Origin: Kofleriaceae bacterium
GTDB lineage: Bacteria > Myxococcota_A > Polyangia > Haliangiales > Haliangiaceae
Assembly: GCA_036490935.1 (NCBI GenBank)
Contig: DASXCY010000002.1
Coordinates: 2,716 to 66,715 of the forward strand
DNA: 64,000 nt
Direction: 5' to 3'
A program made the position numbers and the translations under genes. Of this stretch, positions 1 through 44,998 are shown one piece after another; position 1 is the stretch's first letter; every line of letters starts with the position of its first letter. Under the pieces are notes generated by a model. That model saw only the letters and a program-made list of their open reading frames with translations. It did not search any database and had not been told where the DNA came from.

Positions 1-3116
<3,116 letters not shown>

Positions 3117-3120
<4 letters not shown>

Positions 3121-4712: not shown

Positions 4713-4832
4713 CGCGTGACGAGCGCAAGTGCACGCGAGCGCTCGCGCTCGGTCGACGAATTTTGCGACCGGTCCGCGATCGCCGGTAGGCACACGTGGT
4801 CGCGAACGCTATCTTGCCCGGACAGTGCACGC

Positions 4833-6350
4833 ATGAGCCATCCCGCCATCCCATCCGAGCAGATCTTTCGACTTCTCGTCGAGAGTGTTCGCGACTACGC
4901 GATCTTCATGCTCGACCCGACGGGCCGCGTGACGACCTGGAACATCGGCGCCCAGCGCATCAAGGGCTACGACGCCGACGAGATCATCGGCTGCCACTTC
5001 TCGCGGTTCTATCGCGAGCACGAAGCCAAGAGCGGCAAGTGCGAGTACGAGCTCGAGGTCGCCGAGCGCGAGGGCCGGTTCGAGGACGAGGGCTGGCGCG
5101 TGCGCAAGGATGGGACGCAGTTCTGGGCGAACGTCGTCATCAGCGCCGTCCACGACGCGAGTGGCGAGCTCATCGGCTTCTCGAAGGTCACGCGCGATCT
5201 GACCGAGCGCATGCGCGCCGAGGAAGAGCGCGCGGCGCGCCACGCGGCCGAGCACGCGAACCGCGCGAAGGACGAGTTCCTCGCGATGCTTGGCCACGAG
5301 CTGCGCAATCCGCTCGCGCCGATCGCGACCGCGCTGCAGCTGATGAAGCTGCGCAACCACGGCGAAGCGACGCGCGAGCAGCAGGTGATCGAGCGCCAGG
5401 TCGGCCACGTGATGCGGCTCGTCGATGATCTGCTCGACGTCTCGCGCATCGTGCAGGGCAAGATCGAGCTGCGCAGGCAGCGGCTCGACCTGCGCGAGGT
5501 GCTCGCGAAGGCGATCGAGATCGCGAGCCCGATGCTGGAGCAAAGGCAACACCGTCTCGCGGTCGACCTGCTCCCCGGCCAGCTGCTCGTCGAAGGTGAC
5601 GAGGCACGGCTCACGCAGGTGTTCGCGAACCTGCTCGTCAACGCGGCCAAGTACACCGACCCCGAGGGCTGCATCGAGGTCATCGGCAAGCTCGACGGCA
5701 ACCAGGTGGCGATCGAGATTCGCGACGACGGCGTCGGCATCGATCCGAAGCTGCTACCGCGCGTGTTCGAGCTGTTCGTGCAGGGCTACCAGGGCGTCGA
5801 TCGGTCGCGCGGAGGGCTCGGCCTCGGGCTCACGCTCGTCCGGACGCTCGTCGAGAAACACCGCGGCACGGTGGACGCGTACAGCGAGGGGCTCGGCCGC
5901 GGCAGCTCGTTCACCGTGCGGTTGCCGCGCTGCGAGACCACGTCGGCGGCCGCGCCGAAGCCGCGCAAGCACCGGGTCGTCGCCGATGGCGATGCGCGCC
6001 GCGTGCTGGTCGTCGACGACAACGAGGACGCCGCGCTGATGCTGGCGGATGCGCTGTCCGCAGCCGGCCACGACGTGCGCACCGCACTCGATCCGCCGCA
6101 GGCGCTCGAGGTCGCGCGCGCGTTCCATCCCGAGGTCGCGGTGCTCGACATCGGTTTGCCGGTGATGGACGGCTACGAGCTCGCCGAGCGCTTGCGCAGC
6201 GAGCTCGGCGACCAGACGCCGCGCATGATCGCGCTCACCGGCTACGGCCAGGACTCCGATCGCGAGCGCAGCGCCCGCGCCGGGTTCTCCGCGCATTTCG
6301 TGAAGCCGATCGACGTGCAGCGATTGAGCGACACGATCGCGCGGCCGTAG
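4833..6350 (+). CDS. PAS sensor hybrid histidine kinase with C-terminal receiver (505 aa)
   Basis: ATG 4833 chosen because the track ORF upstream of it is Arg/Ser-rich. PAS-like DYAIFMLDPTGRVTTWNIGAQRIKGY. H-box [11 protein letters not shown], HATPase (NLLVNAAKYT, DDGVGI, GLGLGL). Receiver VLVVDDNEDA..DIGLPVMDG..VKP. Confidence 0.9.
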   Translation: MSHPAIPSEQIFRLLVESVRDYAIFMLDPTGRVTTWNIGAQRIKGYDADEIIGCHFSRFYREHEAKSGKCEYELEVAEREGRFEDEGWRVRKDGTQFWANVVISAVHDASGELIGFSKVTRDLTERMRAEEERAARHAAEHANRAKDEFLAMLGHELRNPLAPIATALQLMKLRNHGEATREQQVIERQVGHVMRLVDDLLDVSRIVQGKIELRRQRLDLREVLAKAIEIASPMLEQRQHRLAVDLLPGQLLVEGDEARLTQVFANLLVNAAKYTDPEGCIEVIGKLDGNQVAIEIRDDGVGIDPKLLPRVFELFVQGYQGVDRSRGGLGLGLTLVRTLVEKHRGTVDAYSEGLGRGSSFTVRLPRCETTSAAAPKPRKHRVVADGDARRVLVVDDNEDAALMLADALSAAGHDVRTALDPPQALEVARAFHPEVAVLDIGLPVMDGYELAERLRSELGDQTPRMIALTGYGQDSDRERSARAGFSAHFVKPIDVQRLSDTIARP

Positions 6351-6411
6351 CGAGCAGAATTACCGCCACGGCGCCGCACACGCCAAGGAGAGACCGGTTT
6401 CACCTGGCGCG

Positions 6412-9400
6412 CTACTTCTTGCCGCCGAGGTCGAGCCGGTAGCGCGTCGCCGATGCGAGGGCAGGGGCGAGCGCGGACAGGTCGCGCGCGACGGCGTCGC
6501 TCGCGATGATCGCGCCGTCGTCGTGGCCGACGAGCCAGCGGTTGCCCGCGATCGCGAGGGCGGTCGTGGCACCGTGATCGATCTCGATCGTGTGCCCGCG
6601 ATCGCCGTTGTCGACGCGCTCGACCGCGCCGGTGCGCGTCACCGCGTGGATCGTGCCGTCGCTCGACACCGCGAGCGCGAGCGCGGCCGACGACAGCGGC
6701 AGCTCGGCGGCGCCGGCCGTCGCGCCCGGCGCGAGCGAGGCGCGCGCGACGATCGCATCGCGCCCGGCGGTCGCGAGCCACGTCCCGGTCGTGTCGAGGG
6801 CGAACGCCGCGACCGCGCCGCGATGATGTGCGAGCTCGCGAGCCGGGCCGGCGCGGCCGTCGGCGATCGGCCACGCGGTGACCGCGCCATCGTTGCTCGC
6901 CGCGATCGCGAGGTCGCCGCGCGCGGGCAGAGCGACGAAATGCACGTCGGCGCGCAGGCCGTCGATCGCGAGCCACGCCGCGAACGGCCCGGTGCCGCCA
7001 TTGCCGCGCCGCCACAGCCGCACGGAGCGGTCTTGCCCGCCCGAGACGAGGCGCTGGCCGGCCGCGTCGAACGCGAGCGCCTCGGTGCCGGCGGTGTTGC
7101 CGGGCAAGACCTCGAGCACGTCACCGGTCGCCGAGAACATCGCGATCGGCCCGAGCGACGTGCCGACCGCGACGCGATCGCCCGCCGCTGCGAGTGCGGT
7201 CACCACGCCTTTGACCTTGCGATGCACCGGCTGCGCGAGCCACCACGCGACGTCGCCGTCGGCGCTGCCGGTGACAACGGTGCCGGCGACCAGCGCGAGC
7301 TTCGTCGCGCGGCCGTCGACGTGGCCGACACGGCCGCCGCGGCCATCGGCGAGGCTCCACGTCCACACGTCGCCGTTGGCGTCGATCGCCGCGAGCTTCG
7401 TGTAATCGCTCGCGAGCAGCTGCGGCGCGGCGCCGGCGGCGAACAGCGCGGGCGGCCCGGCCGGCAGCTCCCAGCGCCGCACGACGCCGTCGCTGTCGCT
7501 CGACCACAACGCGCCCGCCGCGAACGCGACGTGGCGGATGCGCCCGCGGTGGCCGTGCAGCGCCAGATCGCGGCCGCTCGCGCGATCGCGCAGCACGAGC
7601 GAGCCGTCCTCGCCGCCGTCGGCGATCCACCGGCCGTCATCGGAGATCGCCAGGCTGCGCACCTGCGTGTGGTGCATGCCGAGCGTCTCGATCGATCCTT
7701 CGCGATGCTCGGCATCGCTGCGCGCCCCGGCGGAGCCGGAGCTTGCAGGTACCGCGCCCGCGATGCGCGTGATCGCGCCGCTCACCGAGCCGAGCGCGGC
7801 CCACGAGCCGTCCCTCGCGAACGCCGCGCGCTTGGTCTGTAGCTCGGTCGCGACCTCGCGCTCGACGGTGAGCTGGTCGCCGTCGACGCGCCACACGTGC
7901 AGCGTGCCGTCGGCGTCGGCGATCTGGACGTGCGTGCCGTCGGTCCACGAGTCGGCGGCATCGGCGCCGATCTTCGCGGTGCGCGCGGTCCAGTCCGGCG
8001 CGCTCCACAACCAGACGTGCCCTTCGTGATCGGCCGCGACGATCGCGCGGCCGTCGGGCGAGAACTCGACGGTGCCCACCGGCGAGGTCGTCGCCACCAG
8101 CTCGCGCCCCGGCCGCGCGCCGTGCGGCCATAGCCGCACGTGGCCGTGATCGTCGGCGGTGACGAGCCACGCGCTGTCCTTCGACCACGCCATGTGCTGG
8201 ACGTCGCCGGCGTGGCCGTCGAGCTCGGCGAGCACGCGGCCGTCGCGCGCGAGCACGTACGCCTCGCCAGCGTCGCCGCCGATCGCGAGCAGCTGGCCGT
8301 CGGGCGACGGCCGGACCGTGTGCACGCGGCCGCGCTTCGCGACGAGCAGCACGCGCGGCTCGTACAGCGGCGGCTCCCACGCGATCGCGCGCCCGTCGTA
8401 GCCGCCGGTGACGACGCCGCCGCCGGGCAGGCCTTCGACCCAGTGCACCTCGTCGGTGTGAGCGCGCAGCACGTCGCTCGCGACCCCGCGCGCGCGCGCG
8501 TCGTCGAGCACGCTCCACGCCGTGCTCGCCTCGACACCTTTCGGCGTGAGCTCGGCGAGCCACGCGAGCGCCTCGGTCGGATCGCGATCGAGCGCGGTGC
8601 GTGCCTGCCGCAGCAAGAGCTGGTTCTTCTGCGCCTCGATCTCGCCGCGCGCGGTCTCCGCGATCGCGCGCGCATCTTCCGCGGTCGCGCGCGCCGCTCG
8701 CGCGTCGAGCCACAGCCACGTGACCGTGATCGCGAATGCCGCGGTCACCGCGATCGCCGCGCCGGCCGCCGCCGCGACGAACGGCCGCCGCCTCACCCAT
8801 CGGCGCAGCCGCTCGAGCGCGCCGGGCACGCGCACCGACACCGGCAAACCATCGAGGTAGCGCCGCACGTCCTCGGCGAACGCCGCGACCGATTGATAGC
8901 GATCGCGCGGCTCCTTGGCGAGCGCCTTGCCCGCGATCGCCTCGAGGTCGCCCTTGAGCGACGCGTCGCGCGAGCCGAGCGGCGCCGGCGGATCCTCGCA
9001 GATCACCGCGGTCATCGCCGGCAGCGGCATGTCGCGGATGTCGTACGGCAACTGACCGCAGCCGAGCTCGTACAGCATCACGCCGAGCGTGTAGACGTCG
9101 GAGCGCGCGTCGACCTCGTCGGCGCGCAGCCGCGCCTGCTCCGGGCTCATGTACAGCGGGGTGCCGACGAGCTCGCCGGCGCGCGTGTCGCCGGGCGTCG
9201 AGCCGTCGGCGGCGGCCAGCCGCGCGACGCCGAAGTCGAGGATCACGACGCGCCCGTCGGGACGCACCATCACGTTCGACGGCTTCAGATCGCGGTGGAT
9301 CACGCCCTTCAGGTGCGCGTGATAGACCGCCTCGCACATCGCGACGAACAACTCGAATCGGCGGGCGCGCGGCAGCCCCTTCACGTGGCGGTCGAGCGTC

Positions 9401-9906
9401 TCGCCGTCGACGTGCTCCATCACCAGGAATGGTTGGCCGTCGGCTTCGCCGGCCTCGAGCACGCGCGCGATGCCCGGATGATCGAGGCGCGCCATGATCT
9501 GCGCCTCGGCCTTGAACCGCGCGAGCGAGCTCGACGAGCGCGCGAACAGCACCTTGATCGCGACGCGCCGCAGCGGCTCGTCCTGCTCGGCGAGATAGAC
9601 CGTGCCCATGCCGCCCTCGCCGATCTCGTCGAGCAAGCGGTAGCCCGGGATGCGGAACGCCGGCGCCTTCAGGCTCGGCGGCGTGCGGCGCTCGAGGGCC
9701 GGCGCGAACGCCGCGGTCGCGAGGTGCGCGGCGGCATCGGCGGCGAGCAGCCCCGCGACTTCTTCGGCGAGGTCGACATCCGCTTCGCGCACGCGGGCAA
9801 GCAGCTGCTCGCGCTCCGCCGTGCCGAGCGAGACCGCCTCGGTGAACAGCTCGGTGACGCGCGCGTGACGCTCGGGCGTGCCGATCGGCCCTTGCTTCGT
9901 CTTCAC
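6412..9906 (-). CDS. Ser/Thr protein kinase with one TM segment and a C-terminal WD40-like beta-propeller region (1164 aa)
   Basis: GTG 9906 overlaps the TGA of the sigma gene (GTGA). Kinase motifs GEGGMGTVYLA, VAIKVL, HRDLKPSNVMV, DFGVARL, GTPLYMSPEQ. Hydrophobic segment FVAAAAGAAIAVTAAFAITVTWLW. About 700 aa of WD40-like blades follow (LRAHTDEVHWV, LDGHAGDVQHMAWS, LHGHRGRIRHVAF). The Arg-rich first 250 aa of the 1414-aa track ORF were discarded. Confidence 0.9.
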   Translation of the reverse strand: MKTKQGPIGTPERHARVTELFTEAVSLGTAEREQLLARVREADVDLAEEVAGLLAADAAAHLATAAFAPALERRTPPSLKAPAFRIPGYRLLDEIGEGGMGTVYLAEQDEPLRRVAIKVLFARSSSSLARFKAEAQIMARLDHPGIARVLEAGEADGQPFLVMEHVDGETLDRHVKGLPRARRFELFVAMCEAVYHAHLKGVIHRDLKPSNVMVRPDGRVVILDFGVARLAAADGSTPGDTRAGELVGTPLYMSPEQARLRADEVDARSDVYTLGVMLYELGCGQLPYDIRDMPLPAMTAVICEDPPAPLGSRDASLKGDLEAIAGKALAKEPRDRYQSVAAFAEDVRRYLDGLPVSVRVPGALERLRRWVRRRPFVAAAAGAAIAVTAAFAITVTWLWLDARAARATAEDARAIAETARGEIEAQKNQLLLRQARTALDRDPTEALAWLAELTPKGVEASTAWSVLDDARARGVASDVLRAHTDEVHWVEGLPGGGVVTGGYDGRAIAWEPPLYEPRVLLVAKRGRVHTVRPSPDGQLLAIGGDAGEAYVLARDGRVLAELDGHAGDVQHMAWSKDSAWLVTADDHGHVRLWPHGARPGRELVATTSPVGTVEFSPDGRAIVAADHEGHVWLWSAPDWTARTAKIGADAADSWTDGTHVQIADADGTLHVWRVDGDQLTVEREVATELQTKRAAFARDGSWAALGSVSGAITRIAGAVPASSGSAGARSDAEHREGSIETLGMHHTQVRSLAISDDGRWIADGGEDGSLVLRDRASGRDLALHGHRGRIRHVAFAAGALWSSDSDGVVRRWELPAGPPALFAAGAAPQLLASDYTKLAAIDANGDVWTWSLADGRGGRVGHVDGRATKLALVAGTVVTGSADGDVAWWLAQPVHRKVKGVVTALAAAGDRVAVGTSLGPIAMFSATGDVLEVLPGNTAGTEALAFDAAGQRLVSGGQDRSVRLWRRGNGGTGPFAAWLAIDGLRADVHFVALPARGDLAIAASNDGAVTAWPIADGRAGPARELAHHRGAVAAFALDTTGTWLATAGRDAIVARASLAPGATAGAAELPLSSAALALAVSSDGTIHAVTRTGAVERVDNGDRGHTIEIDHGATTALAIAGNRWLVGHDDGAIIASDAVARDLSALAPALASATRYRLDLGGKK

Positions 9907-10457
9907 GTCGGTGCGCCCAGCTCGCGCGCCAGCCACGCGCGCGCCAGCCGCCATTCGGCGTGCACCGTGCGCTCCGAGATGTCGAGCGCGTCGGCGGTCT
10001 CGGCCGCGGTCAGGCCGACGAGGCAGCGCAGCTCGACGATGCGCGCCTGCCGCGCGGACAGCTGCTCGAGCTTGACCAGCGCGTCGTGCACGGCGAGCGC
10101 GTCGGACGGTGCATCGCCGCGGTCGGCGAGGCCGCTGAGCGTCACCTGCACGGCATCGCCGCCGCGCTTCTCCGCGCGCTTGCGGCGCGCCCGGTCGGCG
10201 AGGATCTGGCGCATCGCGAGCGCCGCGATCGCGAAGAAGTGCTTGCGGTCGCGCGCCTCGATCCGCGAATCGACGAGCTTCACGTACAGCTCGTGGACCA
10301 GGCCGCGCGGCTCGAGCGACATCGCCGGGTTCGCGTAGGCGCGCGCGATCCGTTCGAGCTCGCCGTAGACGAGCGGCAACAGCTCGTCGCGCGCGTGCGC
10401 GTCGCCGTCGCGCACGCGCCCGAGCAGCTGCGTGATCGCCGCAGCGGGTTCGCCCAT
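9903..10457 (-). CDS. ECF-type RNA polymerase sigma factor (184 aa)
   Basis: Region 2-like ELLPLVYGELERIARAY..LVHELYVKL. Region 4 HTH LRCLVGLTAAETADALDISERTVHAEWRLARAWL. AGGAGG lies immediately upstream of ATG 10457. The stop overlaps the kinase start. Confidence 0.9.
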   Translation of the reverse strand: MGEPAAAITQLLGRVRDGDAHARDELLPLVYGELERIARAYANPAMSLEPRGLVHELYVKLVDSRIEARDRKHFFAIAALAMRQILADRARRKRAEKRGGDAVQVTLSGLADRGDAPSDALAVHDALVKLEQLSARQARIVELRCLVGLTAAETADALDISERTVHAEWRLARAWLARELGAPT

Positions 10458-10463
10458 CGCCTC

Positions 10464-10640
10464 CTATCTTCGATCCGCATCGTCGGGCTGTCCACTGTCG
10501 GCGCGGTCGTGCGTCGGTTCCTCGACCTCGAAGTCGAGGGTATCGGCCATCTCGAGCTCGGCGTCGGGGATCCCGTCGGAGAGCGCGACTTCGTGGACTT
10601 CGCATGCACTGGTTTCGGTTTGCATCGTGGTCTCCTTCAT
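10464..10640 (-). CDS. Small acidic hypothetical protein (58 aa from ATG 10640, or 53 aa from ATG 10625)
   Basis: ATG 10640 overlaps the TGA of the upstream gene (ATGA). An internal ATG 10625 is preceded by AAGGAGA at 5 nt. Sequence (MKETT)MQTETSACEVHEVALSDGIPDAELEMADTLDFEVEEPTHDRADSGQPDDADRR. Its TAG lies inside the RBS of the sigma gene. GC3 is only moderate, so coding status is uncertain. Confidence 0.45.
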   Translation of the reverse strand: MKETTMQTETSACEVHEVALSDGIPDAELEMADTLDFEVEEPTHDRADSGQPDDADRR

Positions 10641-11143
10641 GCAGCCATTCCGGCAAAGCGCCTCACCACCGTGTCGGCCGCGCGGATCGAGTCCCCGCGC
10701 ACGACGATGGCGCCGAGCTGGACGAGCGGTGCGTCTGCGGACATCTCGCGTGCCACCGCCGCCTCGGCCGCGCGGTCGCCGCCGAGCAGCGCGACCGCGA
10801 GCCGGCGGTCGAGCACCGGGCCTTTCGCGCCGCACATGCGGTAGACGATGCCGATCGTGCTCCACAGCCGCGGCGCGACCGCGACCACGAGCAGCGTCGT
10901 CGCCGCGAGCGTCAGCCCGAGCTCGCGACGCAGCACCGCGTGCGGGCCCAGCGCCTCCCAGCGCGTCAGGCCCTGCCCGGGCCCGGCGCCGGCAAGCGCG
11001 TCGTCGAGCAGCACGCGCGCCGGCCGCGCGAACACCCCGCGCAGGATCGCGTCGCGGCAGCGCGTCGCCACCCAGGCGAACAGGTCGCCGAGGTAGCGGT
11101 CGCGGGTCGCGAGCGGCAGCGAGGGGGCCATGTCCGGACCCAC
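10637..11143 (-). CDS. Hypothetical protein homologous to the helical N-domain of the AAA+ ATPase at 29237-32569 (168 aa)
   Basis: High GC3 and non-Arg-rich composition. By eye, PHAVLRRELGLTLAATTLLVVAVAPRLW..APLVQLGAIVVRG..VVRRFAG aligns with PHVELAHELGLSSTATAVLLLVAAPQIW..SPLVRSGAIAVGRG..IARRLAG of the ATPase. Start is GTG 11143 or ATG 11131. Confidence 0.65.
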   Translation of the reverse strand: MGPDMAPSLPLATRDRYLGDLFAWVATRCRDAILRGVFARPARVLLDDALAGAGPGQGLTRWEALGPHAVLRRELGLTLAATTLLVVAVAPRLWSTIGIVYRMCGAKGPVLDRRLAVALLGGDRAAEAAVAREMSADAPLVQLGAIVVRGDSIRAADTVVRRFAGMAA

Positions 11144-11210
11144 GCAAACCGCGGCCAGATCGTGCAGGCGACCTGTAACTCACGAAAATCCGTAGTATGC
11201 CGTCGGAGCG

Positions 11211-11834
11211 ATGCCTCATACCTGGGACCCGTTTTCGATCGACCCGGAGGCTGGCCAGCACCGTCTCGCGCTCGGTAACCAGCGCTTTCTCGAAGGCACG
11301 AGCCAGTCGGCGAACCGCAGCTTCGATGCGGCGCGCGCCAGCACCTCGCAGCGGCCGTTCGCGATCGTGCTCGCCTGCTCCGACTCGCGGACGCCGGTCG
11401 AGATCGTGTTCGATCAAGGCTTCGGCGATCTGTTCGTCGTGCGCGTCGCCGGCAATATCGTCGCGCCGTCGATCGTCGGCTCGATCGAGTTCGCGGCGTC
11501 GCAGTTCGGCACGCGGCTCGTCGTCGTGATGGGCCACACCGGCTGCGGCGCGATCACCGCGAGCGTGCAGGCGATCGCGACCGGCACGGGGCCCGAGTCG
11601 AAGAACCTGCGCGCGATCACCGATCGCATCTCGCCGCACATCGAAGCGATCGCGCGGCGCGGCTCCGGCCCGGAGACGATGCGCGAGGCGATGCGCGCGA
11701 ACGTGCGCGCGTCGGTCGATCACCTGCGCCACGGCAGCGAGATCCTCGAAGAGCTGGTGCTGAAGAGCCGGGTGCGCGTCGTCGGATCGGAGTACGACCT
11801 CGAGACCGGGCGCGTGAGCTTCTTCGATCACTGA
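11211..11834 (+). CDS. Beta-class carbonic anhydrase (207 aa)
   Basis: Zinc-ligand and active-site motifs CSDSRTPVE, FVVRVAGN and GHTGCGAI. GGAG lies upstream of ATG 11211. Confidence 0.9.
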   Translation: MPHTWDPFSIDPEAGQHRLALGNQRFLEGTSQSANRSFDAARASTSQRPFAIVLACSDSRTPVEIVFDQGFGDLFVVRVAGNIVAPSIVGSIEFAASQFGTRLVVVMGHTGCGAITASVQAIATGTGPESKNLRAITDRISPHIEAIARRGSGPETMREAMRANVRASVDHLRHGSEILEELVLKSRVRVVGSEYDLETGRVSFFDH

Positions 11835-11836
11835 GC

Positions 11837-12289
11837 TCACTCGGGAACGTACGGATAGATCGCGGTCTCGTCGATCCCGAGATCGGTCGCGAGCATCGCC
11901 CAGTACGCACCGTCGGGGCCGAGCGACGCGCTGCCGACCGTCGCCGACAGCTCGACCTGCTCGCAGCCGCCGGGCTGGACCGTGCCGCGCACGAGCTCGC
12001 CGCCGCCGCCCGAGAAGTCGAGGTAGTACGTGATGCCGAAATCGGCCGGGCAATTGTAGGCGCCCGGTGCCAGCGCGGGCAGCGCGAGCGTGGCGGCATA
12101 GACGTCGCGCGCCGCATCGCCGGTGACGGTGACGTCGACCGCGGGCGGCGCGTTCTGCGCGATCGAGCTCGCCGTCGTGAAGTGGAGCGTGTCGATCGCG
12201 GGTTGTTCGGTCTGCAGCTGCTCGATGGCGGTGGGGGCGCTCGCGCAGGCGGCGAGCAGGACCGGGATGAGGATCGCGAGGCGATGCAT
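11837..12289 (-). CDS. Hypothetical lipoprotein (150 aa)
   Basis: ATG 12289 gives MHRLAILIPVLLAAC (signal peptide plus lipobox). The rest is non-repetitive with high GC3. Confidence 0.75.
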   Translation of the reverse strand: MHRLAILIPVLLAACASAPTAIEQLQTEQPAIDTLHFTTASSIAQNAPPAVDVTVTGDAARDVYAATLALPALAPGAYNCPADFGITYYLDFSGGGGELVRGTVQPGGCEQVELSATVGSASLGPDGAYWAMLATDLGIDETAIYPYVPE

Positions 12290-12423
12290 GGCCCGGCCAT
12301 CAGCAAGCGACATGCCCGGCGAGCTCCTACGTGATCCAACGGAGATGGCGGCGAGCGCGCCACGAAAACCTGAGGCGCGGCTCCGGCGTCCGAACGGATC
12401 TTCGGCATACTGCAAGGTGGCGC

Positions 12424-12831
12424 ATGCGCATCCTGCTCGTCGATGACGACCCCGATCTGGTGGGCGCGGTCTCCGCCATGCTGCGCCACCACGGCCACAC
12501 GGTCGAGACCGCGGCCGATGGCGCGGCCGCGCTGCGGCTCGCGGCGTCGCGTCCCGAGGCCGTGCTACTCGATCTGCATCTGCCCGACGTCGATGGCTTC
12601 GAGGTCGCGCAGGCCCTGCGGGCCGGCCTGCTCGCGCACGAGGCCAGCATCATCGTCATCACCGGCCACAAGGCGCAGCTCGAGGTCGCCGATCGCGCAG
12701 GCGTCGATCTGCTGCTCGAGAAGCCGGTCGATTCGCAGCACCTCGGCGGGCTCGTCGAGTACATCACGAAGCGGCGCCACGACATGCTGCACACCGCGGG
12801 CAGCGCCGCGATCCGCTGCATTCGCTGGTGA
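12424..12831 (+). CDS. Single-domain response regulator (135 aa)
   Basis: MRILLVDDDPDLV..VLLDLHLPDVDG..LEKP. ATG 12424 chosen within the track ORF 12331-12831. Confidence 0.9.
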   Translation: MRILLVDDDPDLVGAVSAMLRHHGHTVETAADGAAALRLAASRPEAVLLDLHLPDVDGFEVAQALRAGLLAHEASIIVITGHKAQLEVADRAGVDLLLEKPVDSQHLGGLVEYITKRRHDMLHTAGSAAIRCIRW

Positions 12832-12837
12832 GGCCGG

Positions 12838-13842
12838 TCAGCCGTCGCTCGTGCGCAGCGTGAACGTCACCGCGGTGCCCGCGCCGAGCACGCTCTCGAT
12901 CGACAGCGCGCCGCCGTGGCGCGCGACGATGCCCTGACAGATGTACAGGCCGAGCGACCGCGCCCGCGACGTGCCGGTCTGCAGGCGTGCGGCGCTCACC
13001 GGCGTCATGCCTTCGCCCTCGTCGCGCACGGTCAGCCGCACGCGATCGGCGGTACGCTCGGCGCGCACCAGGACGCGGCCGCCGGCGCGCGAGTGCCGGG
13101 TCGCGTTGTCGATCAGGTTGCCGAGCACCTGGAGGATGCGGTGGCGGTCGCATTCGACGTCGACCTCGGCGCCGGCGATGTCGCGGTCGAGGCGCACGCC
13201 GCGCTGGCCGGCGACCGGCGCCTGCAGCAACAGGGCCTCGCCGGTGAGCTCGTCGATCGAGACCCGGCCGAGCTCGAGCGAGAGCCCACCGCCGCGCAGG
13301 CTCGCATCGGAGACGAGATCCTCGACGAGCCGGCCCATGCGCGTGGTCGAGCGCCGGATCGCATCGAGCGACGCTTGCACGCCGGGCTCGTCGGCGAGGT
13401 GCTTGCGGAGCAGGTGCGCGCTCGCGGCGATCGCCTGGAGCGGGCTGCGCAGGTCGTGCGCGACGACGGCGAGCACTTCCTCGCGCAGGTCCATGCCCGC
13501 GCGCAGCTCGCGCTCGACGCGCGCGCGTGCGGTGATCTCGGCCACGATCACGCCGAGGCCGGCGAACGCACCGTCCTCGTCGTGGATCGCGAAGTAGCTC
13601 GCCTCGAAGCTGCGCGCGGAATCGCTCGCGAGCTCGTGCAACACCGGCACACCGCTCGCGATCACGTCGCGCAGCATCGGCTCGGCATCCGGCCACACGT
13701 CGCTCCACGCGCGGCCGACCAGGTCGCCGCCGATCGTGACGAGTGCAGCGTTCGCGTGCACGCAGCGCAGCTCGCGATCGAGCAACGCGATGCCGAGCGG
13801 ACACGCGGCCACGAGCCGCGCGTATCCCGCATGATCGGTCAT
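12838..13842 (-). CDS. PAS sensor histidine kinase (334 aa; alternative start at 13929)
   Basis: PAS-like LGIALLDRELRCVHANAAL. H-box VAHDLRSPLQAI. HATPase (NLIDNATRHS, DEGEGM, LGLYICQGIVARHGG). Convergent with the response regulator at 12424. Confidence 0.85.
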   Translation of the reverse strand: MTDHAGYARLVAACPLGIALLDRELRCVHANAALVTIGGDLVGRAWSDVWPDAEPMLRDVIASGVPVLHELASDSARSFEASYFAIHDEDGAFAGLGVIVAEITARARVERELRAGMDLREEVLAVVAHDLRSPLQAIAASAHLLRKHLADEPGVQASLDAIRRSTTRMGRLVEDLVSDASLRGGGLSLELGRVSIDELTGEALLLQAPVAGQRGVRLDRDIAGAEVDVECDRHRILQVLGNLIDNATRHSRAGGRVLVRAERTADRVRLTVRDEGEGMTPVSAARLQTGTSRARSLGLYICQGIVARHGGALSIESVLGAGTAVTFTLRTSDG

Positions 13843-13986
13843 ACCCACCGGTAGTTCATCGACCGTGCCGCACACGCTTACTGCTCGGTAATCGACTCGG
13901 CTCGCCGCGACGAGAACGGCCGGTAACACGCGCGTTCCCGGCGGGGAGCGCGCGGATTGTCAGAGGCGCACGCCGGTACGTGCGCG

Positions 13987-15225
13987 CTACGCGAGGTCCT
14001 GGTCGGAAATGCCGTGGGCCTTGAGCTTGCCCCACAGGCCTTTGCGCGTGATGCCGAGGATCTCGGCGGCGCGGCCGCGATTGCCGGCGACGCTGCGCAG
14101 CACGCGGAGCAGATAATCGCGCTCGAACCGCTTCGCGACCACGTCGAGCGCTTCGAGCTCGTTCTCCGCCGCGGGTGAATCCTGCGCGGCGCGCGTGTTC
14201 GCGCGAATGCTGAGCGGCAGGTGCTCGGGCTCGATCGCGCCGGTGCGCGCGAGGATGTAGGCGTGGGTCAGCGCGTGCGCGAGCTCGAGCAGGTTGCCCG
14301 GGAAGCTGTAGTGCGCGAGCAGCTCCATCGCGCGCGGCGACACCGAGGGTGCATCGCCGGCGGCCGCGAGCCGTGCGAGCATGCGCGCGACGATCACGTC
14401 GAGATCGCGGCCGCGGGTCGCGAGCGCCGGGATCTCGACTTCGAGCACCTTGAGCCCGTAGTACAGCTCGCGCGACACGAACGGCGGCGCCCCGTCGAGC
14501 GCGAGGTCGCGCTGGATGCCGAACACGAGCCGCGGGCTCGCGTCGTCGCGCGGCGCGGTCTCGAGGTAGTGCGCGAGCTCGCGCTGCGTGATCGGGCCCG
14601 CCGACCCGATGCGCTCGACGAACAGCGTGCCGGCTTGCGCCGCGCGCACCGCGGCGTCGGTGCCCGCGAACAGCCGCCGCGCGAGCTCGTCGTCGGGATA
14701 GGCGACCGTGCTGAACGCGACGAACGGGCATGCGCGCCGGCTACTGCGATCGTGGATCGCGCGCGCGACGACCGCGCGGCCGGAGCCGTCATCGCCGACG
14801 ATCCACACCGGTGCCTCGCTGCGCGCGACGATGCGCACGCGCCGCAGCAGGTCGCGGATCTGCGAGCTCGCGCCGCCGAACACGGTGTCGTAGGCGACGA
14901 GGTCGGTCGGCTGGCGCCGACGCTCGCCGTCGAGCACGTCCGCGAGCTCGTCGACCGCGCGCAGCAGGCGATCGAGATCGACCGGGCGACCGAGCTGCTC
15001 GATCACGTCGGGGTGCGCTTCGCCCCGCGCGGCGCCGAGCAAGATGAACTCGGTGCCGGGGGATTCGCCCGCGATCGTCGCGACCAGATCGTCGCGTGCG
15101 GCGAGCTCGGCATCCGCGATCACGAGATCGGCGGCGCGCGCCTCCGCGATCGCGTGGCCGCGCTGCATCAGGGCGCCGCGGATCCGTGGATCGGGCGCGT
15201 AGTCCGTGAGCAGCGCGATTCGCAC
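13987..15225 (-). CDS. NtrC-family-like regulator with degenerate AAA+ core and a Fis-type HTH (412 aa)
   Basis: GTG 15225 (VRIALLTDY..) has GGGGAG 6 nt upstream. Receiver-like N-terminus (DLVIAD). Enhancer-binding-protein-like core with GDDGSGR in place of GESGTGK, LFVERI in place of LFLDEI, and no GAFTGA. C-terminal HTH RGRAAEILGITRKGLWGKLKAHGI. Only the last 412 aa of the 889-aa track ORF look real. Confidence 0.8.
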   Translation of the reverse strand: MRIALLTDYAPDPRIRGALMQRGHAIAEARAADLVIADAELAARDDLVATIAGESPGTEFILLGAARGEAHPDVIEQLGRPVDLDRLLRAVDELADVLDGERRRQPTDLVAYDTVFGGASSQIRDLLRRVRIVARSEAPVWIVGDDGSGRAVVARAIHDRSSRRACPFVAFSTVAYPDDELARRLFAGTDAAVRAAQAGTLFVERIGSAGPITQRELAHYLETAPRDDASPRLVFGIQRDLALDGAPPFVSRELYYGLKVLEVEIPALATRGRDLDVIVARMLARLAAAGDAPSVSPRAMELLAHYSFPGNLLELAHALTHAYILARTGAIEPEHLPLSIRANTRAAQDSPAAENELEALDVVAKRFERDYLLRVLRSVAGNRGRAAEILGITRKGLWGKLKAHGISDQDLA

Positions 15226-15432
15226 TAGGCGCTCCCCGCACGGGCTCGCACGACACGACTGTGCTGCGCTGCCACGGCGGTCTCCACGCCCCGATGTTAC
15301 CGCAGCTTCCCATCGCTTCCAACCGTCTGAAGCCAATGTGGTTTTTCGCCCCTCCGAGTTTACCCGCGCGTAAAACGCCCGCGTGCGCCGGGTGACGCCG
15401 CGCGGCGCGACTTTTGAAAACGGGGCTCCGAC

Positions 15433-19455
<4,023 letters not shown>

Positions 19456-19464
19456 GCTGAGCTC

Positions 19465-19848
19465 GTGGCCGCGCCGCTCAAGATCCTCGTCGTCGAGGAC
19501 GATCGCGTCTACGCGGAGTTCGTGGTGGCGACGCTGCGCGGCGCCGGCCACGAGCTGGCGCATGTCGAGACCGGTGCGGCCGCGCGCGAACAGGTCGGCG
19601 CGATGCAGCCGGATGCGGTCGTGCTCGACCTCACGCTGCCCGACGAGTCCGGCTTCGACATCGCGCGCGCCCTACGCGGCGGCCTGCTGTCGGATGGTTC
19701 GGTGATCATCCTGCTCACCGCGAGCATGTTTCCCGACCGCGACACCGCGGAAGCGATCGGCATCGACATCGTGCTGTCCAAGCCGGTGACCGCCGAGCTC
19801 GTGATCGGCATCATCGATCTCGTCCACGCGCGCCGGCAGCGGCGCTAG
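19465..19848 (+). CDS. Single-domain response regulator (127 aa)
   Basis: GTG 19465. KILVVEDDRVY..VVLDLTLPDESG..LSKP. Confidence 0.9.
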   Translation: MAAPLKILVVEDDRVYAEFVVATLRGAGHELAHVETGAAAREQVGAMQPDAVVLDLTLPDESGFDIARALRGGLLSDGSVIILLTASMFPDRDTAEAIGIDIVLSKPVTAELVIGIIDLVHARRQRR

Positions 19849-29236: not shown

Positions 29237-32569
<3,333 letters not shown>

Positions 32570-40604: not shown

Positions 40605-41087
40605 GTGGCGAAGCATCCGGTCACGATGGCGATCCGCGCGTTGCGCGCGGCGAACGTCGCGTTCGAGCCGCAGCTCTACGCGTGGGAGCCGCACGGCGGC
40701 ACGCGCGCGTCGAGTGAGGCGCTCGGCGTCGACGAGCACGCGGTCGTCAAGACGCTGATCTTCGAAGACGAGACGCGCGCGCCGCTGTGCATCCTCATGC
40801 ACGGCGATCGCGAGGTGTCGGCGAAACGGCTCGCGCGCACGGTCGGCCGCAAGGCGGTGGCGCCGTGCGCACCGGAGGTCGCCGACAAGCATTCCGGGTA
40901 TCAGGTCGGCGGCACGTCGCCGTTCGGGCTGCGCCGCGCGATGCCGATCTACATGGAGCGTTCGATCGCGGAGCTGCCGCGCATCTACATCAACGGCGGC
41001 GCGCGCGGCTTGCTCGTCGCGCTCGATCCGCGCGAGGCCGTGCGGGTGCTCGCGCCCGCGCTTGTCGACGTCGCGATCGAACGCTAG
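40605..41087 (+). CDS. ybaK: Cys-tRNA(Pro)/Cys-tRNA(Cys) deacylase YbaK (160 aa)
   Basis: GTG 40605. VVKTLIFEDE..LCILMHGDREVSAKRLAR..SGYQVGGTSPFGL..IYINGGARGLLV is the YbaK/EbsC pattern. Confidence 0.88.
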   Translation: MAKHPVTMAIRALRAANVAFEPQLYAWEPHGGTRASSEALGVDEHAVVKTLIFEDETRAPLCILMHGDREVSAKRLARTVGRKAVAPCAPEVADKHSGYQVGGTSPFGLRRAMPIYMERSIAELPRIYINGGARGLLVALDPREAVRVLAPALVDVAIER

Positions 41088-41101: not shown

Positions 41102-41707
41102 ATGGCCACCGCGATCCGGATCTGGTCCGACTACGTTTGACCGTGGTGCTATGTCGGCCTCGTCGAGGTCGAGAAGGTGCACGCGCGCTACGACGTCGAG
41201 CTCGAGTGGGAGCCGTTCGAGCTGCGGCCCGGCGCGCCGGAGACCGGCTGGGCCGTGCCCGAGCACGTGCGCGCGAAGCTGGGCCGGCCCGATAACCCGC
41301 TGACGCAGCGCGCGCGGTCGCTCGGGATCACGCTGGCCGAACGCGAGTGGGTGCCGTCGTCGCGGCGCGCGCACGAATGCACCGAGCACGCGCGCTCGGC
41401 GGGCAAGCTCGCACGATTTCACGCCGCCGTGCTCGCGTCCTACTGGAGCGAGGGCAAGGATCTGCACGACTGGGACGTGCTCGCCGCGGCCGCCGCCTCG
41501 GCCGGCCTCGATGCCGCCGCGATGCGCGCCGAGGTCGAAGCCGGCGCCTGGACCGCGCAGGTCGACGCCCGCATCGCCGCGGCCAACGAGATCGGCATTC
41601 ACGCCGTGCCGACGTTCGTGCTCGGCGATCGGTTCGTCGTGCAGGGCGCGCAGACTCTCGACGTGTTCGAGAGCGTGCTGGCCAAGCTCGGCGTCTCGCC
41701 CCGGTGA
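41102..41707 (+). CDS. DsbA/FrnE-like thiol oxidoreductase with in-frame TGA at the first active-site Cys position (candidate selenoprotein UPWC, or a nonsense pseudogene; 201 codons)
   Basis: ATG 41102 gives MATAIRIWSDYV-TGA(41138-41140)-PWCYVGLVEVEKVHARYDVELEWEPFEL.. The track ORF 41177-41707 is in the same frame, 25 codons downstream of the ATG. The family motif WSD..CPWCY.G fits exactly apart from the TGA. Confidence 0.7.
41154..41172 (+). promoter_or_regulatory. SECIS-like hairpin downstream of the in-frame TGA
   Basis: tcggcctc-gtc-gaggtcga forms 8 bp (one G.U pair) with a GUC apical loop. The stem starts 13 nt after the TGA and the loop 21 nt after it. Confidence 0.4.
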
Positions 41708-41796
41708 CGGACTGCACGAACGCTGCACACCTCGGAACGACGCATTGTGGGGAACGCACGTTGCACGGCGGGCGGACGGTGGACTACGTCTTGGGT

Positions 41797-42192
41797 GTGA
41801 TCACGAGATTTCGCGTGGCTCGCGCATCGCTCGCTTGCGTGACTGTGACCATCGCGCTCACCGCGTGCGGCACCGAGCCCGATTCGCGCCCCGCCACGAT
41901 CGACTACATCGTCGATGCCGTGCTCGCACCGCAGTGCGCGGTCGCGGGCTGCCACACGGCGGCTTCTCAGGCGCACGGTTACGCGTTCGATACCGTCGAT
42001 GACACGCTGGCCGCATTTCACTCGTCCCGGGACCAGCTGCTCGTCGATCCCGGCCAGCCCGACGAGTCCGAGCTCTACGTGGTCCTCATCAGCTCCGACA
42101 AACCGATGCCACCGGCGTGGACGTTGCCGCACGCGGACATCGAGCTCGTCAAGACGTGGATCGATGACGGCGCTCCCGGTTACACACCATGA
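41797..42192 (+). CDS. Small lipoprotein with planctomycete-cytochrome-c-like (PSCyt1-like) domain and a CX4CH motif (131 aa)
   Basis: GTG 41797 gives (M)ITRFRVARASLACVTVTIALTAC. IVDAVLAPQCAVAGCHT..LLVDPGQPDESELYVVL..MPP..IELVKTWIDDGAP. The stop overlaps the next start (ATGA). Start choice is uncertain. Confidence 0.6.
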   Translation: MITRFRVARASLACVTVTIALTACGTEPDSRPATIDYIVDAVLAPQCAVAGCHTAASQAHGYAFDTVDDTLAAFHSSRDQLLVDPGQPDESELYVVLISSDKPMPPAWTLPHADIELVKTWIDDGAPGYTP

Positions 42193-43286
42193 GGGCCGTC
42201 GTCGTCGCGGTCGTCGCGGTCGCTGCTTCGGGCGGCGTGGCGACCGCTTACCCGCAGTTCCAGCTCAGCAAGGATCAAGCGTGCACCGCGTGTCACGTCG
42301 ATCCGGCCGGCGGTTGGCTGCTGAACGAAAACGGTCTGTCCACGGCGCAGAGCCTCGGCACGTACGATGTCGCGCCCGAAGCCGCACACGGCGCGCTGGT
42401 CGGGCCGAGCTGGCTCGAGGTCGGAGCCGAGCTGCGCGGCGGCGCGGGGCTGGTCGCCGCACGCGGCCTGGGCGCGGCGGCGTATCCGATGCAAGCCGAT
42501 GGCGAGGCGCTCGTGCACGGCGATGGCTTCACGCTGTTCGGCACGCTCGGTCCGCAACAGGGCTCGACCGCCGCGAGCTACGTCGCGAGTCGCGAGCACT
42601 GGCTCATGTGGCAACCCGATCAGTCGGCGACGGATGGCTTGTACCTGCGCGTCGGGCGGTTCATGCCGGTGTTCGGGCTCCGCTTCGCGGAGCACACCGC
42701 GCCGACCGAGCAGTACGGCGGAGCGCAGCTGTACGGCGAAGCCTACGGCGCGGCGCTCGAGTACGTCAAACCCGGCTGGGAAGCGCACGTGACCGGGTTC
42801 GTCCACGATCCGATCCAGGACACCGTGGAACACGGCGACGGTGCCGCGCTCTATACCGAGCTGCGCGTCACCCAGGCCGCGTCGATCGGCGTCGAAGGCC
42901 GCTACGCGACGAGCAGCGTGGACACGCGCTGGGACGGCGGCGTCACCGCGAAGTACTGGGTCGCGCCGGCCGAGGTCTTGCTCGAGGCCGAGGGCCAGGT
43001 GATCCGGCAATCGTTTCCGGCCGGCAGCGCCCGCACGCAGCTCGTGAGCTACCTGATCGGATCGTGGTTCGTGCATCGCGGCTGGATGCTCGACGTGGGA
43101 GCCGGGCAGTACGACGAGGACACGAAGATCAAGGACGTCGACCTCGAATGCGTGGATGTCGATCTGCACTGGTTTGCCAGCTCGCACTGGGAGCTGCTCG
43201 TGACCGATCGCGTCCAGACGATCGCGCTCGGCGCCGGCGGCCCGACTTCAGGCTGGGCACTGCTGCAGTTTCATTACCGCTTGTGA
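42189..43286 (+). CDS. Secreted, probably outer-membrane beta-barrel-like protein with N-terminal CxxCH motif (365 aa)
   Basis: Signal peptide MRAVVVAVVAVAASGGVATA. CTACH at residues 32-36. The remainder has alternating-pattern beta-rich sequence with frequent Y/W/G. Confidence 0.75.
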   Translation: MRAVVVAVVAVAASGGVATAYPQFQLSKDQACTACHVDPAGGWLLNENGLSTAQSLGTYDVAPEAAHGALVGPSWLEVGAELRGGAGLVAARGLGAAAYPMQADGEALVHGDGFTLFGTLGPQQGSTAASYVASREHWLMWQPDQSATDGLYLRVGRFMPVFGLRFAEHTAPTEQYGGAQLYGEAYGAALEYVKPGWEAHVTGFVHDPIQDTVEHGDGAALYTELRVTQAASIGVEGRYATSSVDTRWDGGVTAKYWVAPAEVLLEAEGQVIRQSFPAGSARTQLVSYLIGSWFVHRGWMLDVGAGQYDEDTKIKDVDLECVDVDLHWFASSHWELLVTDRVQTIALGAGGPTSGWALLQFHYRL

Positions 43287-43534
43287 CTTGCGATAGAACA
43301 CGAAGCAGAGATAGAGCGAGAGCGCGACCGCGGCGAGACCGCGTGCACGAGCGGCGACGCGTCGATGCGGTAATGGATCGAGTGATGCGTCCAGGATCGG
43401 TAGTACCTGGCACAGGCCGGTGACCGCCCACCCGCGAGCAGCGCGGCCGACAGCGAGAAGCTGACCTGGTACGAGATCCACGAGCACGCAGCCTTGCACG
43501 GAGCGCACCGCCGACCCGCGTAGCGCCGGCGCAC
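43274..43534 (-). CDS. Possible small Cys/His-containing protein (86 aa)
   Basis: GTG 43534. ..RRCAPCKAACSWISYQVSFSLSAALLAGG..HHSIHY.. The frame has clearly higher GC3 than the alternative frame (43248-43508). Only 36 nt separate it from the annotated MFS start. Weak support. Confidence 0.25.
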   Translation of the reverse strand: MRRRYAGRRCAPCKAACSWISYQVSFSLSAALLAGGRSPACARYYRSWTHHSIHYRIDASPLVHAVSPRSRSRSISASCSIASHKR

Positions 43535-43570
43535 GGTCGAAGCGGCGCCGGCGCGCGGCTACACTCGGCG

Positions 43571-44998
43571 ATGACGCCCGACGTCGCGGTCGGCAGCTGG
43601 ATCGACTCCGACGTGCCGGTGCGGCTCGACATGTTGCGCTGGTCGGCGTGGCATCGCCGCGTCGTGCTCGCGCTCGGCATCACGTGGGTGCTCGACGGCC
43701 TCGAGGCCAGCTTGGTGGCCAACCTCGCACCGACGCTGCAGGACCCGCGCGCGCTCGGTTTGACCGCGACGCAGATCGGCTGGACGAACACGTGCTACCT
43801 CGTCGGCCAGGTGCTCGGCGCGCTCGGCTTCGCGCACCTGACCGATCGCTTCGGGCGCAAGCGGCTGTTCCTGATCACGCTCGGCCTCTACCTGTGCGCG
43901 ACCGCGGCGAGCGGGCTCGCGCCGACCCTCGGCGTGTTCCTCGTGCTGCGGTTTCTCACCGGCGCCGGCATCGGCGGCGAATACGCGGCGATCAACTCCG
44001 CGATCGACGAGCTCGTCCCGGCGCGCCTGCGCGGGCGGATCGATCTCGGGATCAACGGCAGCTACTGGGCCGGCGTCGCGGCCGGCGCGGTCCTGACGTT
44101 GATCGTGCTCGATCCGGCGCTGCTGCCGGTCGCGATCGGCTGGCGCCTGTCGTTCGGGCTCGGCGCCGTGCTCGGGCTCATCGTGATCGTCGTGCGCCGC
44201 CGCGTGCCGGAGAGCCCGCGCTGGCTGCTGCTCCACGGCTACACGCGCGCCGCGGCCGCGACGGTCGACGCGATCGAGCACGAGGTCGGGCGGCCCGACG
44301 CGCAGGTCGCGCCGGTGCGCGTGCACGTCACCGGACGCGTCGGGCTCGGCTACCTCGTGCGCACGCTCGTCGTCCGGTTTCGGCGGCGCACGATCCTCGG
44401 CTTCGTGCTGATGTTCGCGCAGGCCACGCTCTACAACGCGGTCTTCTTCAGCTACGCGCTCGTGCTGCGCGTGTTCGACGGCGTCGCCCCGGGCCGCGTC
44501 GGGCTGTACATCGTGCCCGTCGCGATCGGCAACTTCCTCGGTCCGCTCGTGCTCGGGCCGCTGTTCGATCGCATCGGCCGCCGCGTGATGATCCCGGCGA
44601 CCTACGCGATCACGGGCGTGCTGCTCGCGCTCACCGGCCTGCTGTTCGCGGCCGGCTGGCTCGACGCGCTCACGCAAACGCTCGCCTGGTCGCTCGTGTT
44701 CTTCGTCGCGTCGGCCGCGGCGAGCTCCGCGTACTTGACGGTGAGCGAGCTGTTTCCGGTCGAGCTCCGGGCTCGCGCGATCGCCGTGTTCTACGCGTTC
44801 GCGACGCTCGTCGGCGCCGGCGCTCCCGCCGTCTTCGGGGCGATGATCGACGCCCACGCTCCGCGCCAGCTGCTCGCCGGCTATCTCGCGACGGCCGCGC
44901 TGATGATCGGCGCCGCCGTGATCGCGCGGCTGCTCGGCGTCGCCGCAGAAGGCCGCTCGCTCGAGCAGCTCGCGGTCACGGCTTCGCCTCGAACGTGA
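43571..44998 (+). CDS. MFS transporter (475 aa; alternative start ATG 43631)
   Basis: Twelve hydrophobic segments. MFS signature GFAHLTDRFGRKRLFL between TM2 and TM3, and PLFDRIGRR in the second half. Confidence 0.9.
   Translation: MTPDVAVGSWIDSDVPVRLDMLRWSAWHRRVVLALGITWVLDGLEASLVANLAPTLQDPRALGLTATQIGWTNTCYLVGQVLGALGFAHLTDRFGRKRLFLITLGLYLCATAASGLAPTLGVFLVLRFLTGAGIGGEYAAINSAIDELVPARLRGRIDLGINGSYWAGVAAGAVLTLIVLDPALLPVAIGWRLSFGLGAVLGLIVIVVRRRVPESPRWLLLHGYTRAAAATVDAIEHEVGRPDAQVAPVRVHVTGRVGLGYLVRTLVVRFRRRTILGFVLMFAQATLYNAVFFSYALVLRVFDGVAPGRVGLYIVPVAIGNFLGPLVLGPLFDRIGRRVMIPATYAITGVLLALTGLLFAAGWLDALTQTLAWSLVFFVASAAASSAYLTVSELFPVELRARAIAVFYAFATLVGAGAPAVFGAMIDAHAPRQLLAGYLATAALMIGAAVIARLLGVAAEGRSLEQLAVTASPRT

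Follow-up and report, generated by a model that had tools for sequence, protein, structure and literature searches.

A DsbA/FrnE-like frame with an internal TGA

The locus described here lies on the forward strand of the window, by which we mean the whole stretch of DNA that was analysed (64,000 nucleotides), and comprises one DsbA/FrnE-like reading frame, an internal TGA near its 5' end and a hairpin shortly behind that codon. The frame opens at ATG 41102 (+) and reads MATAIRIWSDYV ahead of TGA 41138-41140. After the TGA it encodes PWCYVGLVEVEKVHARYDVELEWEPFELRPG or, over a longer stretch, PWCYVGLVEVEK..., and translation from 41102 meets a second in-frame stop only at TGA 41705-41707, which gives 201 codons including the putative Sec13. 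The program-made list of open reading frames shows just 41177..41707, a 176-aa product that starts at GTG in the same frame, 25 codons past ATG 41102. The same 176-aa product, called from GTG 41177 and missing the active site, has entered the protein database as P0001. The positions that the earlier note assigned to the ATG, the TGA, the end of the frame, the ORF-track call and the hairpin were all reproduced from the sequence. The features of the locus are as follows.

41102..41707, + strand: full coding sequence of the putative DsbA/FrnE-like selenoprotein (translation, Pfam DSBA, match to FrnE 5CNW, ATGs of orthologs)
41138..41140, + strand: predicted Sec-UGA codon, residue 13, first position of U-P-W-C (aligned with Cys of orthologs and of FrnE)
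41147..41149, + strand: TGC for Cys16, the presumed resolving Cys of UxxC (Cys in 21/21 Sec forms and 10/10 Cys forms)
41154..41172, + strand: candidate bacterial SECIS hairpin (in 26/26 Sec forms; synonymous constraint; agreement with the bSECIS model)
41142..41183, + strand: possible weak lower SECIS stems flanking the core hairpin (RNAalifold consensus of 24 Sec forms; tentative)
41177..41179, + strand: GTG taken in error as the start by gene callers (ORF list; database entry P0001)
41378..41380, + strand: TGC for Cys93 in PSSRRAHECTE (invariant in alignment A1)

The GC3 downstream of TGA 41138-41140 is 0.93, a value typical of live coding sequence. TGA also terminates most genes in the window, indicating that the genome is not globally recoded. 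An independent Logan assembly, made from run SRR11833745 (L042), agrees with window positions 41112-43697 at 100% identity, TGA 41138-41140 included; it and the window possibly share their reads. Three further TGAs that interrupt a frame with coding-like GC3 before and after them (1370 -, 55671 + and 55821 +) were considered and set aside, as none is accompanied by a redox motif and they probably lie in shadow frames of genes read on the other strand or in a different frame.

With Cys put at the TGA, the translation matched the Pfam DSBA family (PF01323, E=4.9e-32) over residues 5-193 and profile positions 2-190 of 191, which places the TGA, as residue 13, inside a single domain. The best relative of solved structure was D. 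radiodurans FrnE (PDB 5CNW, 5CP1; E=5.9e-25, aligned residues 5-194), and in the 5CNW alignment TGA 41138-41140 falls on the first Cys of the FrnE CPWC. The segment IWSDYV-U-PWCYVG, at residues 6-18, is aligned to FrnE from residue 14 on, with no signal peptide ahead of it. FrnE and the window protein share the N-terminal signature WSD-x2-CPWCY-x-G, the lack of a signal peptide and the same helical insert. They differ at the active site, where FrnE has Cys at the position of the predicted Sec, and in length: the FrnE chain has 260 residues and is aligned up to 216, whereas the window protein ends at residue 201, without a C-terminal extension or a C-terminal Cys pair. The C-terminal tail of FrnE carries a second Cys pair, CX4C. 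Periplasmic DsbA of the E. coli type resembles the window protein in its thioredoxin fold, helical insert and CxxC-type active site, but the window protein has no signal peptide and reads U-P-W-C rather than C-P-H-C. The protein falls in the FrnE/COG2761 branch, and a role in periplasmic disulfide formation is unlikely. It is very probably a cytoplasmic thiol-disulfide oxidoreductase of the FrnE type, a location we infer because an active site at residue 13 leaves a signal peptide no room.

Besides residue 13, the only positions at which the protein could offer a thiol are C16 and C93, its sole Cys residues. Column 93 of the full-length alignment holds Cys in 21/21 Sec forms and in 7/10 Cys forms, and Gln in FrnE. 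This pattern suggests that Cys93 is a third conserved, redox-capable residue, which might act as an additional resolving residue or in regulation.

Sec and Cys forms among the orthologs

Ortholog DNA was sampled from GTDB genomes, JGI metagenomes and three contig look-ups (L039-L041) with the peptide anchors [IV]PSSRRAHE and [ED]G[KR]D[LI]H[DEA]WxV. Both anchors are far from the TGA site, so the sampling was without bias toward TGA. Counts refer to the 39 sequences, that of the window included, which reach the N-terminus. TGA occupies exactly the position of codon 13 in 26 of these 39 orthologous sequences, and a Cys codon, TGC or TGT, occupies it in 13. The search for Cys/Sec pairs proposed in the earlier note thus yielded both kinds at one codon. 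The context of the Sec form is WSDY[VI]-TGA-PWCY[VI]GLVE[VA]E. Orthologs that carry the TGA are ~60-75% identical in protein sequence and have an intact frame; the named genomes of the ortholog set are all Myxococcota MAGs (Polyangiaceae, Haliangiales, Archangiaceae and "Myxococcales").

Ahead of the TGA, 12 codons encode a conserved peptide with synonymous variation. The Arg of codon -7, for instance, never changes but is written as CGC, CGG, CGA or CGT, and Ser at -4 and Asp at -3 behave likewise. The PWCYVGL segment after the TGA shows the same combination of protein-level conservation and synonymous variation, and in every ortholog an ATG precedes the TGA by 9-12 codons. Conservation of the upstream peptide together with synonymous variation indicates that translation runs through this upstream segment, in the same frame as the downstream part.

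In a protein search, almost all of the closest relatives in the database (65-75% identity) proved to be truncated at the N-terminus. CPWC is missing from 63 of the best 120 clusters, whose starts are ATG, GTG or TTG and scattered, none before query residue 21. Such scattered late starts are the footprint of gene callers that stop at the TGA. The truncated clusters (within P0018-P0120) are DsbA-family entries of 142-184 aa without the active site, and one of them, P0045, bears the name '2-hydroxychromene-2-carboxylate isomerase/DsbA-like thioredoxin domain protein'. The mistake in annotation is systematic and extends over the whole Sec clade. NCBIfam has no model for the selenoprotein predicted at 41102-41707 (the sole match was weak: NF041057, 36 bits against a cutoff of 190), so automated annotation will repeat the truncation. 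The main value of the present findings is practical, namely the repair of the annotation of this gene and of most of its close relatives. With the correction, the selenoproteomes of soil Myxococcota, which are noted more for their aerobic life than for a rich use of selenium, would gain a selenoprotein; the understanding of Sec decoding and of DsbA-family enzymes stays as it was.

The hairpin downstream of the TGA

The hairpin begins 13 nt past TGA 41138-41140. Its stem pairs 41154-41160 with 41166-41172 (7 bp, one of them G.U) and its loop, 41161-41165, is CGUCG; the C and G of the loop are able to close an eighth pair, leaving GUC (tcggcctc/gtc/gaggtcga). All 26 Sec forms carry UCGGCCU-[C/G]GU[C/G]G-AGG[U/C][C/U]GA, with folding energies of -10.3 to -13.0 kcal/mol. 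The folds of the Cys forms, in contrast, are weaker and inconsistent (-4.4 to -8.2 kcal/mol), and none has the GU loop. The hairpin of the window is the intact consensus, with no decay. The earlier note had set against Sec insertion a pattern in which every ortholog carries TGC and no downstream structure is conserved; what we found is TGA in 26/39, with the hairpin in each of those 26.

Within the Sec-form alignment the stem is paired in 100% of cells and 5/7 pairs never vary. The only stem changes are G.U/G-C swaps in one ortholog (L002) plus one in another (L040), and pairing is kept in both. The alignment that the earlier note proposed therefore upheld conservation of the hairpin (26/26 Sec forms) and did not yield the covariation that was also to be looked for: there were 0 double changes in the Sec-form stem alignment, which follows from a stem that hardly varies. 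Synonymous-codon entropy was informative in its place. Over codons +5 to +11 it is 0.24 in the Sec forms, tied for the lowest of 167 windows of codons (gene mean 0.75); the Cys forms reach 1.06 over these codons, above their own gene mean of 0.80. Judged by these synonymous sites, the hairpin is under RNA-level constraint in Sec forms only.

The hairpin is partly favoured by the peptide V-G-L-x-E-x-E, as some Cys forms keep a weaker stem. The closest Cys form, L041, separates the two effects. It has the same GLVEAE peptide as the Sec forms L002 and L040, and its stem is broken by the changes GGC-to-GGG and GAG-to-GAA. The peptide alone thus does not fix the nucleotides of the hairpin. A search of the 64 kb window for the exact hairpin motif gave this one occurrence, compared with 0.09 expected by chance.

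Folding of 41138-41200 as a single sequence was no better than that of shuffled sequences (z=-0.93), a result that is uninformative in DNA of 70% GC; the hairpin is established by comparative data, not by the single sequence. Rfam at gathering thresholds gave no match in the window, and the hairpin has no significant similarity to the Rfam SECIS families. A permissive Rfam scan returned SECIS_3 at 41115-41155 (18.8 bits against a gathering threshold of 63, E=0.058), which we regard as a chance match whose coordinates miss the hairpin. The absence of single-fold and Rfam support is not surprising for a 19-nt element in 70% GC DNA. An RNAalifold consensus of 24 Sec forms tentatively added lower stems that pair alignment columns 5-8 with 43-46 and 11-13 with 38-40. 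Some sequences lack several of these pairs; in the window, columns 11/40 are occupied by G.G.

Like the SECIS element of the E. coli fdhF type, the hairpin lies inside the coding region and presents a G and then a U in its apical loop; it is shorter than the full fdhF-type element, and its stem is without a bulged U. Its loop GU occupies nt 25-26 counted from the U of UGA, close to the loop G23/U24 of the fdhF SECIS.

The published model of bacterial SECIS elements (PMC13188914, Fig. 2A legend) specifies an apical loop of 3-9 nt and an upper stem of 4-16 bp. It further gives a G in the first two loop positions, typically as N1-G-[G/U]-N-N2, a UGA-to-loop distance of 16-37 nt and an MFE of -7.5 kcal/mol or lower (PMC13188914). 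For hairpin 41154-41172 the corresponding values are a loop of 5 nt (3 nt if C-G closes), a stem of 7-8 bp, the loop pattern C-G-U-C-G, a UGA-to-loop distance of 20-21 nt and an MFE of -11.5 kcal/mol. The hairpin is within all the published bSECIS constraints. The SECIS assignment that the earlier note had offered tentatively is strengthened by these comparisons, since the hairpin it named is present in every Sec form and fits the published model.

Decoding of the UGA, alternative readings and genomic context

Sec/Cys pairing, conservation of both flanks and the SECIS-type hairpin together support what the earlier note had put forward as one of two readings, a Sec-containing UPWC oxidoreductase. 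On this comparative evidence, 41102-41707 is most probably (about 0.88) a genuine selenoprotein gene in which TGA encodes Sec in the active site. The ribosome would reach UGA 41138-41140 while SelB.GTP.Sec-tRNA(Sec) is bound to hairpin 41154-41172, and Sec would be delivered as residue 13 in place of termination. Sec would be the attacking nucleophile in the thiol/selenol-disulfide exchange that the enzyme would then catalyse via a U13-C16 selenenylsulfide. The genes selA, selB, selC and selD would lie elsewhere in the genome.

The predicted protein is of a known kind. A "DsbA-like protein, COG2761, UxxC" was reported in 2005 as a Sargasso Sea selenoprotein family (PMC1088965), and in 2006 a DsbA-like selenoprotein was described in Anaeromyxobacter dehalogenans, Desulfovibrio desulfuricans and Desulfotomaculum reducens (PMC1794560). 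The family had grown to 45 genes in 41 organisms by 2016 (PMC5029168), and a 2026 review lists a "DsbA-like protein form 1, PF01323, UxxC" (PMC13188914). The window gene resembles this family in its PF01323 domain, in Sec as the first residue of UxxC, in its pairs of Sec and Cys orthologs, in a SECIS element within the coding region shortly past the UGA and in its occurrence in Deltaproteobacteria/Myxococcota. Matched to the published members by their descriptions, 41102-41707 belongs to the known DsbA-like (COG2761/FrnE-type) UxxC kind.

The Sec machinery itself was sought in the window and in related loci. SelA, SelB and SelD domains were absent from the ~45 window proteins scanned, and the 64 kb window contains no tRNA genes. 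Likewise, neither tRNA-Sec nor selA, selB or selD was found in 41 related loci (~300 kb). As the window covers only a minor fraction of a large genome, the lack of Sec genes in it does not decide the matter. Table S2 of Peng et al. 2016 gives 10-12 selenoproteins for Anaeromyxobacter, 6 for Plesiocystis, 3 for Haliangium, 3 for Corallococcus and 2-3 for Myxococcus. With many Myxococcota listed as Sec users, Sec capacity is common in the phylum. A literature search on SelB and Myxococcales found no paper.

Among the alternatives, the one that survives best, though improbable, is that the UGA is not decoded as Sec in this genome: selABCD would have been lost, the codon would be read through at a low level by a near-cognate tRNA (as Trp or Cys) or would terminate translation, and TGA and hairpin would be recent relics. 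Two observations are compatible with this, namely that the Sec machinery was not observed for the window's genome and that Sec and Cys are switched frequently in the clade, with three Cys lineages nested among the Sec forms. A relic hairpin would be expected to erode, as it does quickly in the nested Cys forms, whereas that of the window is the intact consensus; the frame and its GC3 are intact as well, and many Myxococcota use Sec.

It is still less probable that the functional product is a shorter protein without CxxC, made from GTG 41177 or another internal start, with the upstream DNA as an untranslated leader. The annotation as called, P0001 and 62 other truncated clusters agree with such a product at face value, but the called starts scatter over residues 21 to 60 (ATG, GTG, TTG) with no conserved internal start among them. 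Both the 12 codons before the TGA and PWCYVGL are conserved as protein with synonymous variation, and a product begun at residue 26 would be without two parts of the DSBA domain, its first beta-strand and its active-site helix. Least probable of all is the second reading of the earlier note, a pseudogene derived from a Cys-type DsbA/FrnE gene by one inactivating change, TGC-to-TGA, in this organism: TGA is indeed one nucleotide from TGC, the Sec machinery was not seen in the window and the single-sequence fold is unremarkable, but the same TGA in 26/39 orthologs at ~60-75% identity, the intact frame with both flanks conserved, the strict co-occurrence of a SECIS-type hairpin with the TGA, its synonymous constraint and a GC3 of 0.93 past the TGA effectively exclude it.

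Returning to the selenoprotein reading, we placed the window gene among its orthologs with a neighbour-joining tree, a crude one without bootstrap, in which the Cys forms of Myxococcaceae/Archangium are the outgroup and the window gene lies within a large Sec clade. Cys lineages are nested in this clade at three places (L025, L041 and L003/L034). The nested Cys forms (L041 10037-10084, L003/L034 and L025/L035) keep remnants of the hairpin, or 'fossil SECIS'; L003, for example, keeps a 7-bp stem with changed pairs and the loop GAAGG. These remnants suggest recent reversions from Sec to Cys. Zhang et al. 2006 described Sec/Cys exchange as "dynamic", and the nested Cys lineages agree with this; our set of 26 Sec and 13 Cys sequences, in which the hairpin of the nested Cys lineages has decayed, is an illustration of that known exchange. 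We consider possible, but rather doubtful, a wider reading in which the Sec forms make up a clade specific to Myxococcota whose Sec arose independently of that in the marine and anaerobe DsbA-like selenoproteins described before, with an unusually minimal, near-invariant 19-nt SECIS, C93 as a possible extra resolving residue and at least three recent Sec-to-Cys reversions, hairpin decay following each. If it were true, the clade would serve as a compact natural series in which to study SelB-SECIS recognition and what it costs aerobic soil bacteria to exchange Sec and Cys.

Directly upstream of the gene, a YbaK/EbsC-type Cys-tRNA(Pro) deacylase is encoded at 40605-41087 (+; TIGR00011, E=9e-44). 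It ends 14 nt before ATG 41102, and the two genes are probably co-transcribed. We looked in the 41 other loci for six neighbours of the window gene: the YbaK deacylase, the cytochrome-c-like lipoprotein, a 365-aa protein, an MFS transporter, an iron permease and an FG-GAP protein. None was found beside the ortholog in any of these loci, and the positive control worked; the ortholog contexts in L039-L041 are unrelated to that of the window. A functional tie between the Cys-tRNA(Pro) deacylase and the selenoprotein was considered and dropped, as the adjacency is absent from all 41 other loci.

The next gene downstream, 41704-42192 (+), is called from GTG 41704, which overlaps the stop codon of the selenoprotein frame; its true start is probably further downstream. 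In its product, a lipoprotein-like signal (…VTIALTAC-G) is combined with a Planctomycete cytochrome C domain (PSCyt1, E=3e-6). Elsewhere in the window, a large AAA-ATPase protein (29237-32569, -) adjoins a 969-aa protein with an eCIS core domain (PF13699; 32442-35351, +), a pair reminiscent of the cargo or accessory genes of extracellular contractile injection systems. Positions 1-19848 hold a dense signalling cluster with three consecutive hybrid histidine kinases (55-6350), a 1414-aa Ser/Thr kinase with WD40 propellers (6412-10656, -) and a 1340-aa CheB-CheR-PAS-HK-receiver fusion (15433-19455). Such a cluster is typical of large Myxococcota genomes and is consistent with the taxonomic placement of the window.
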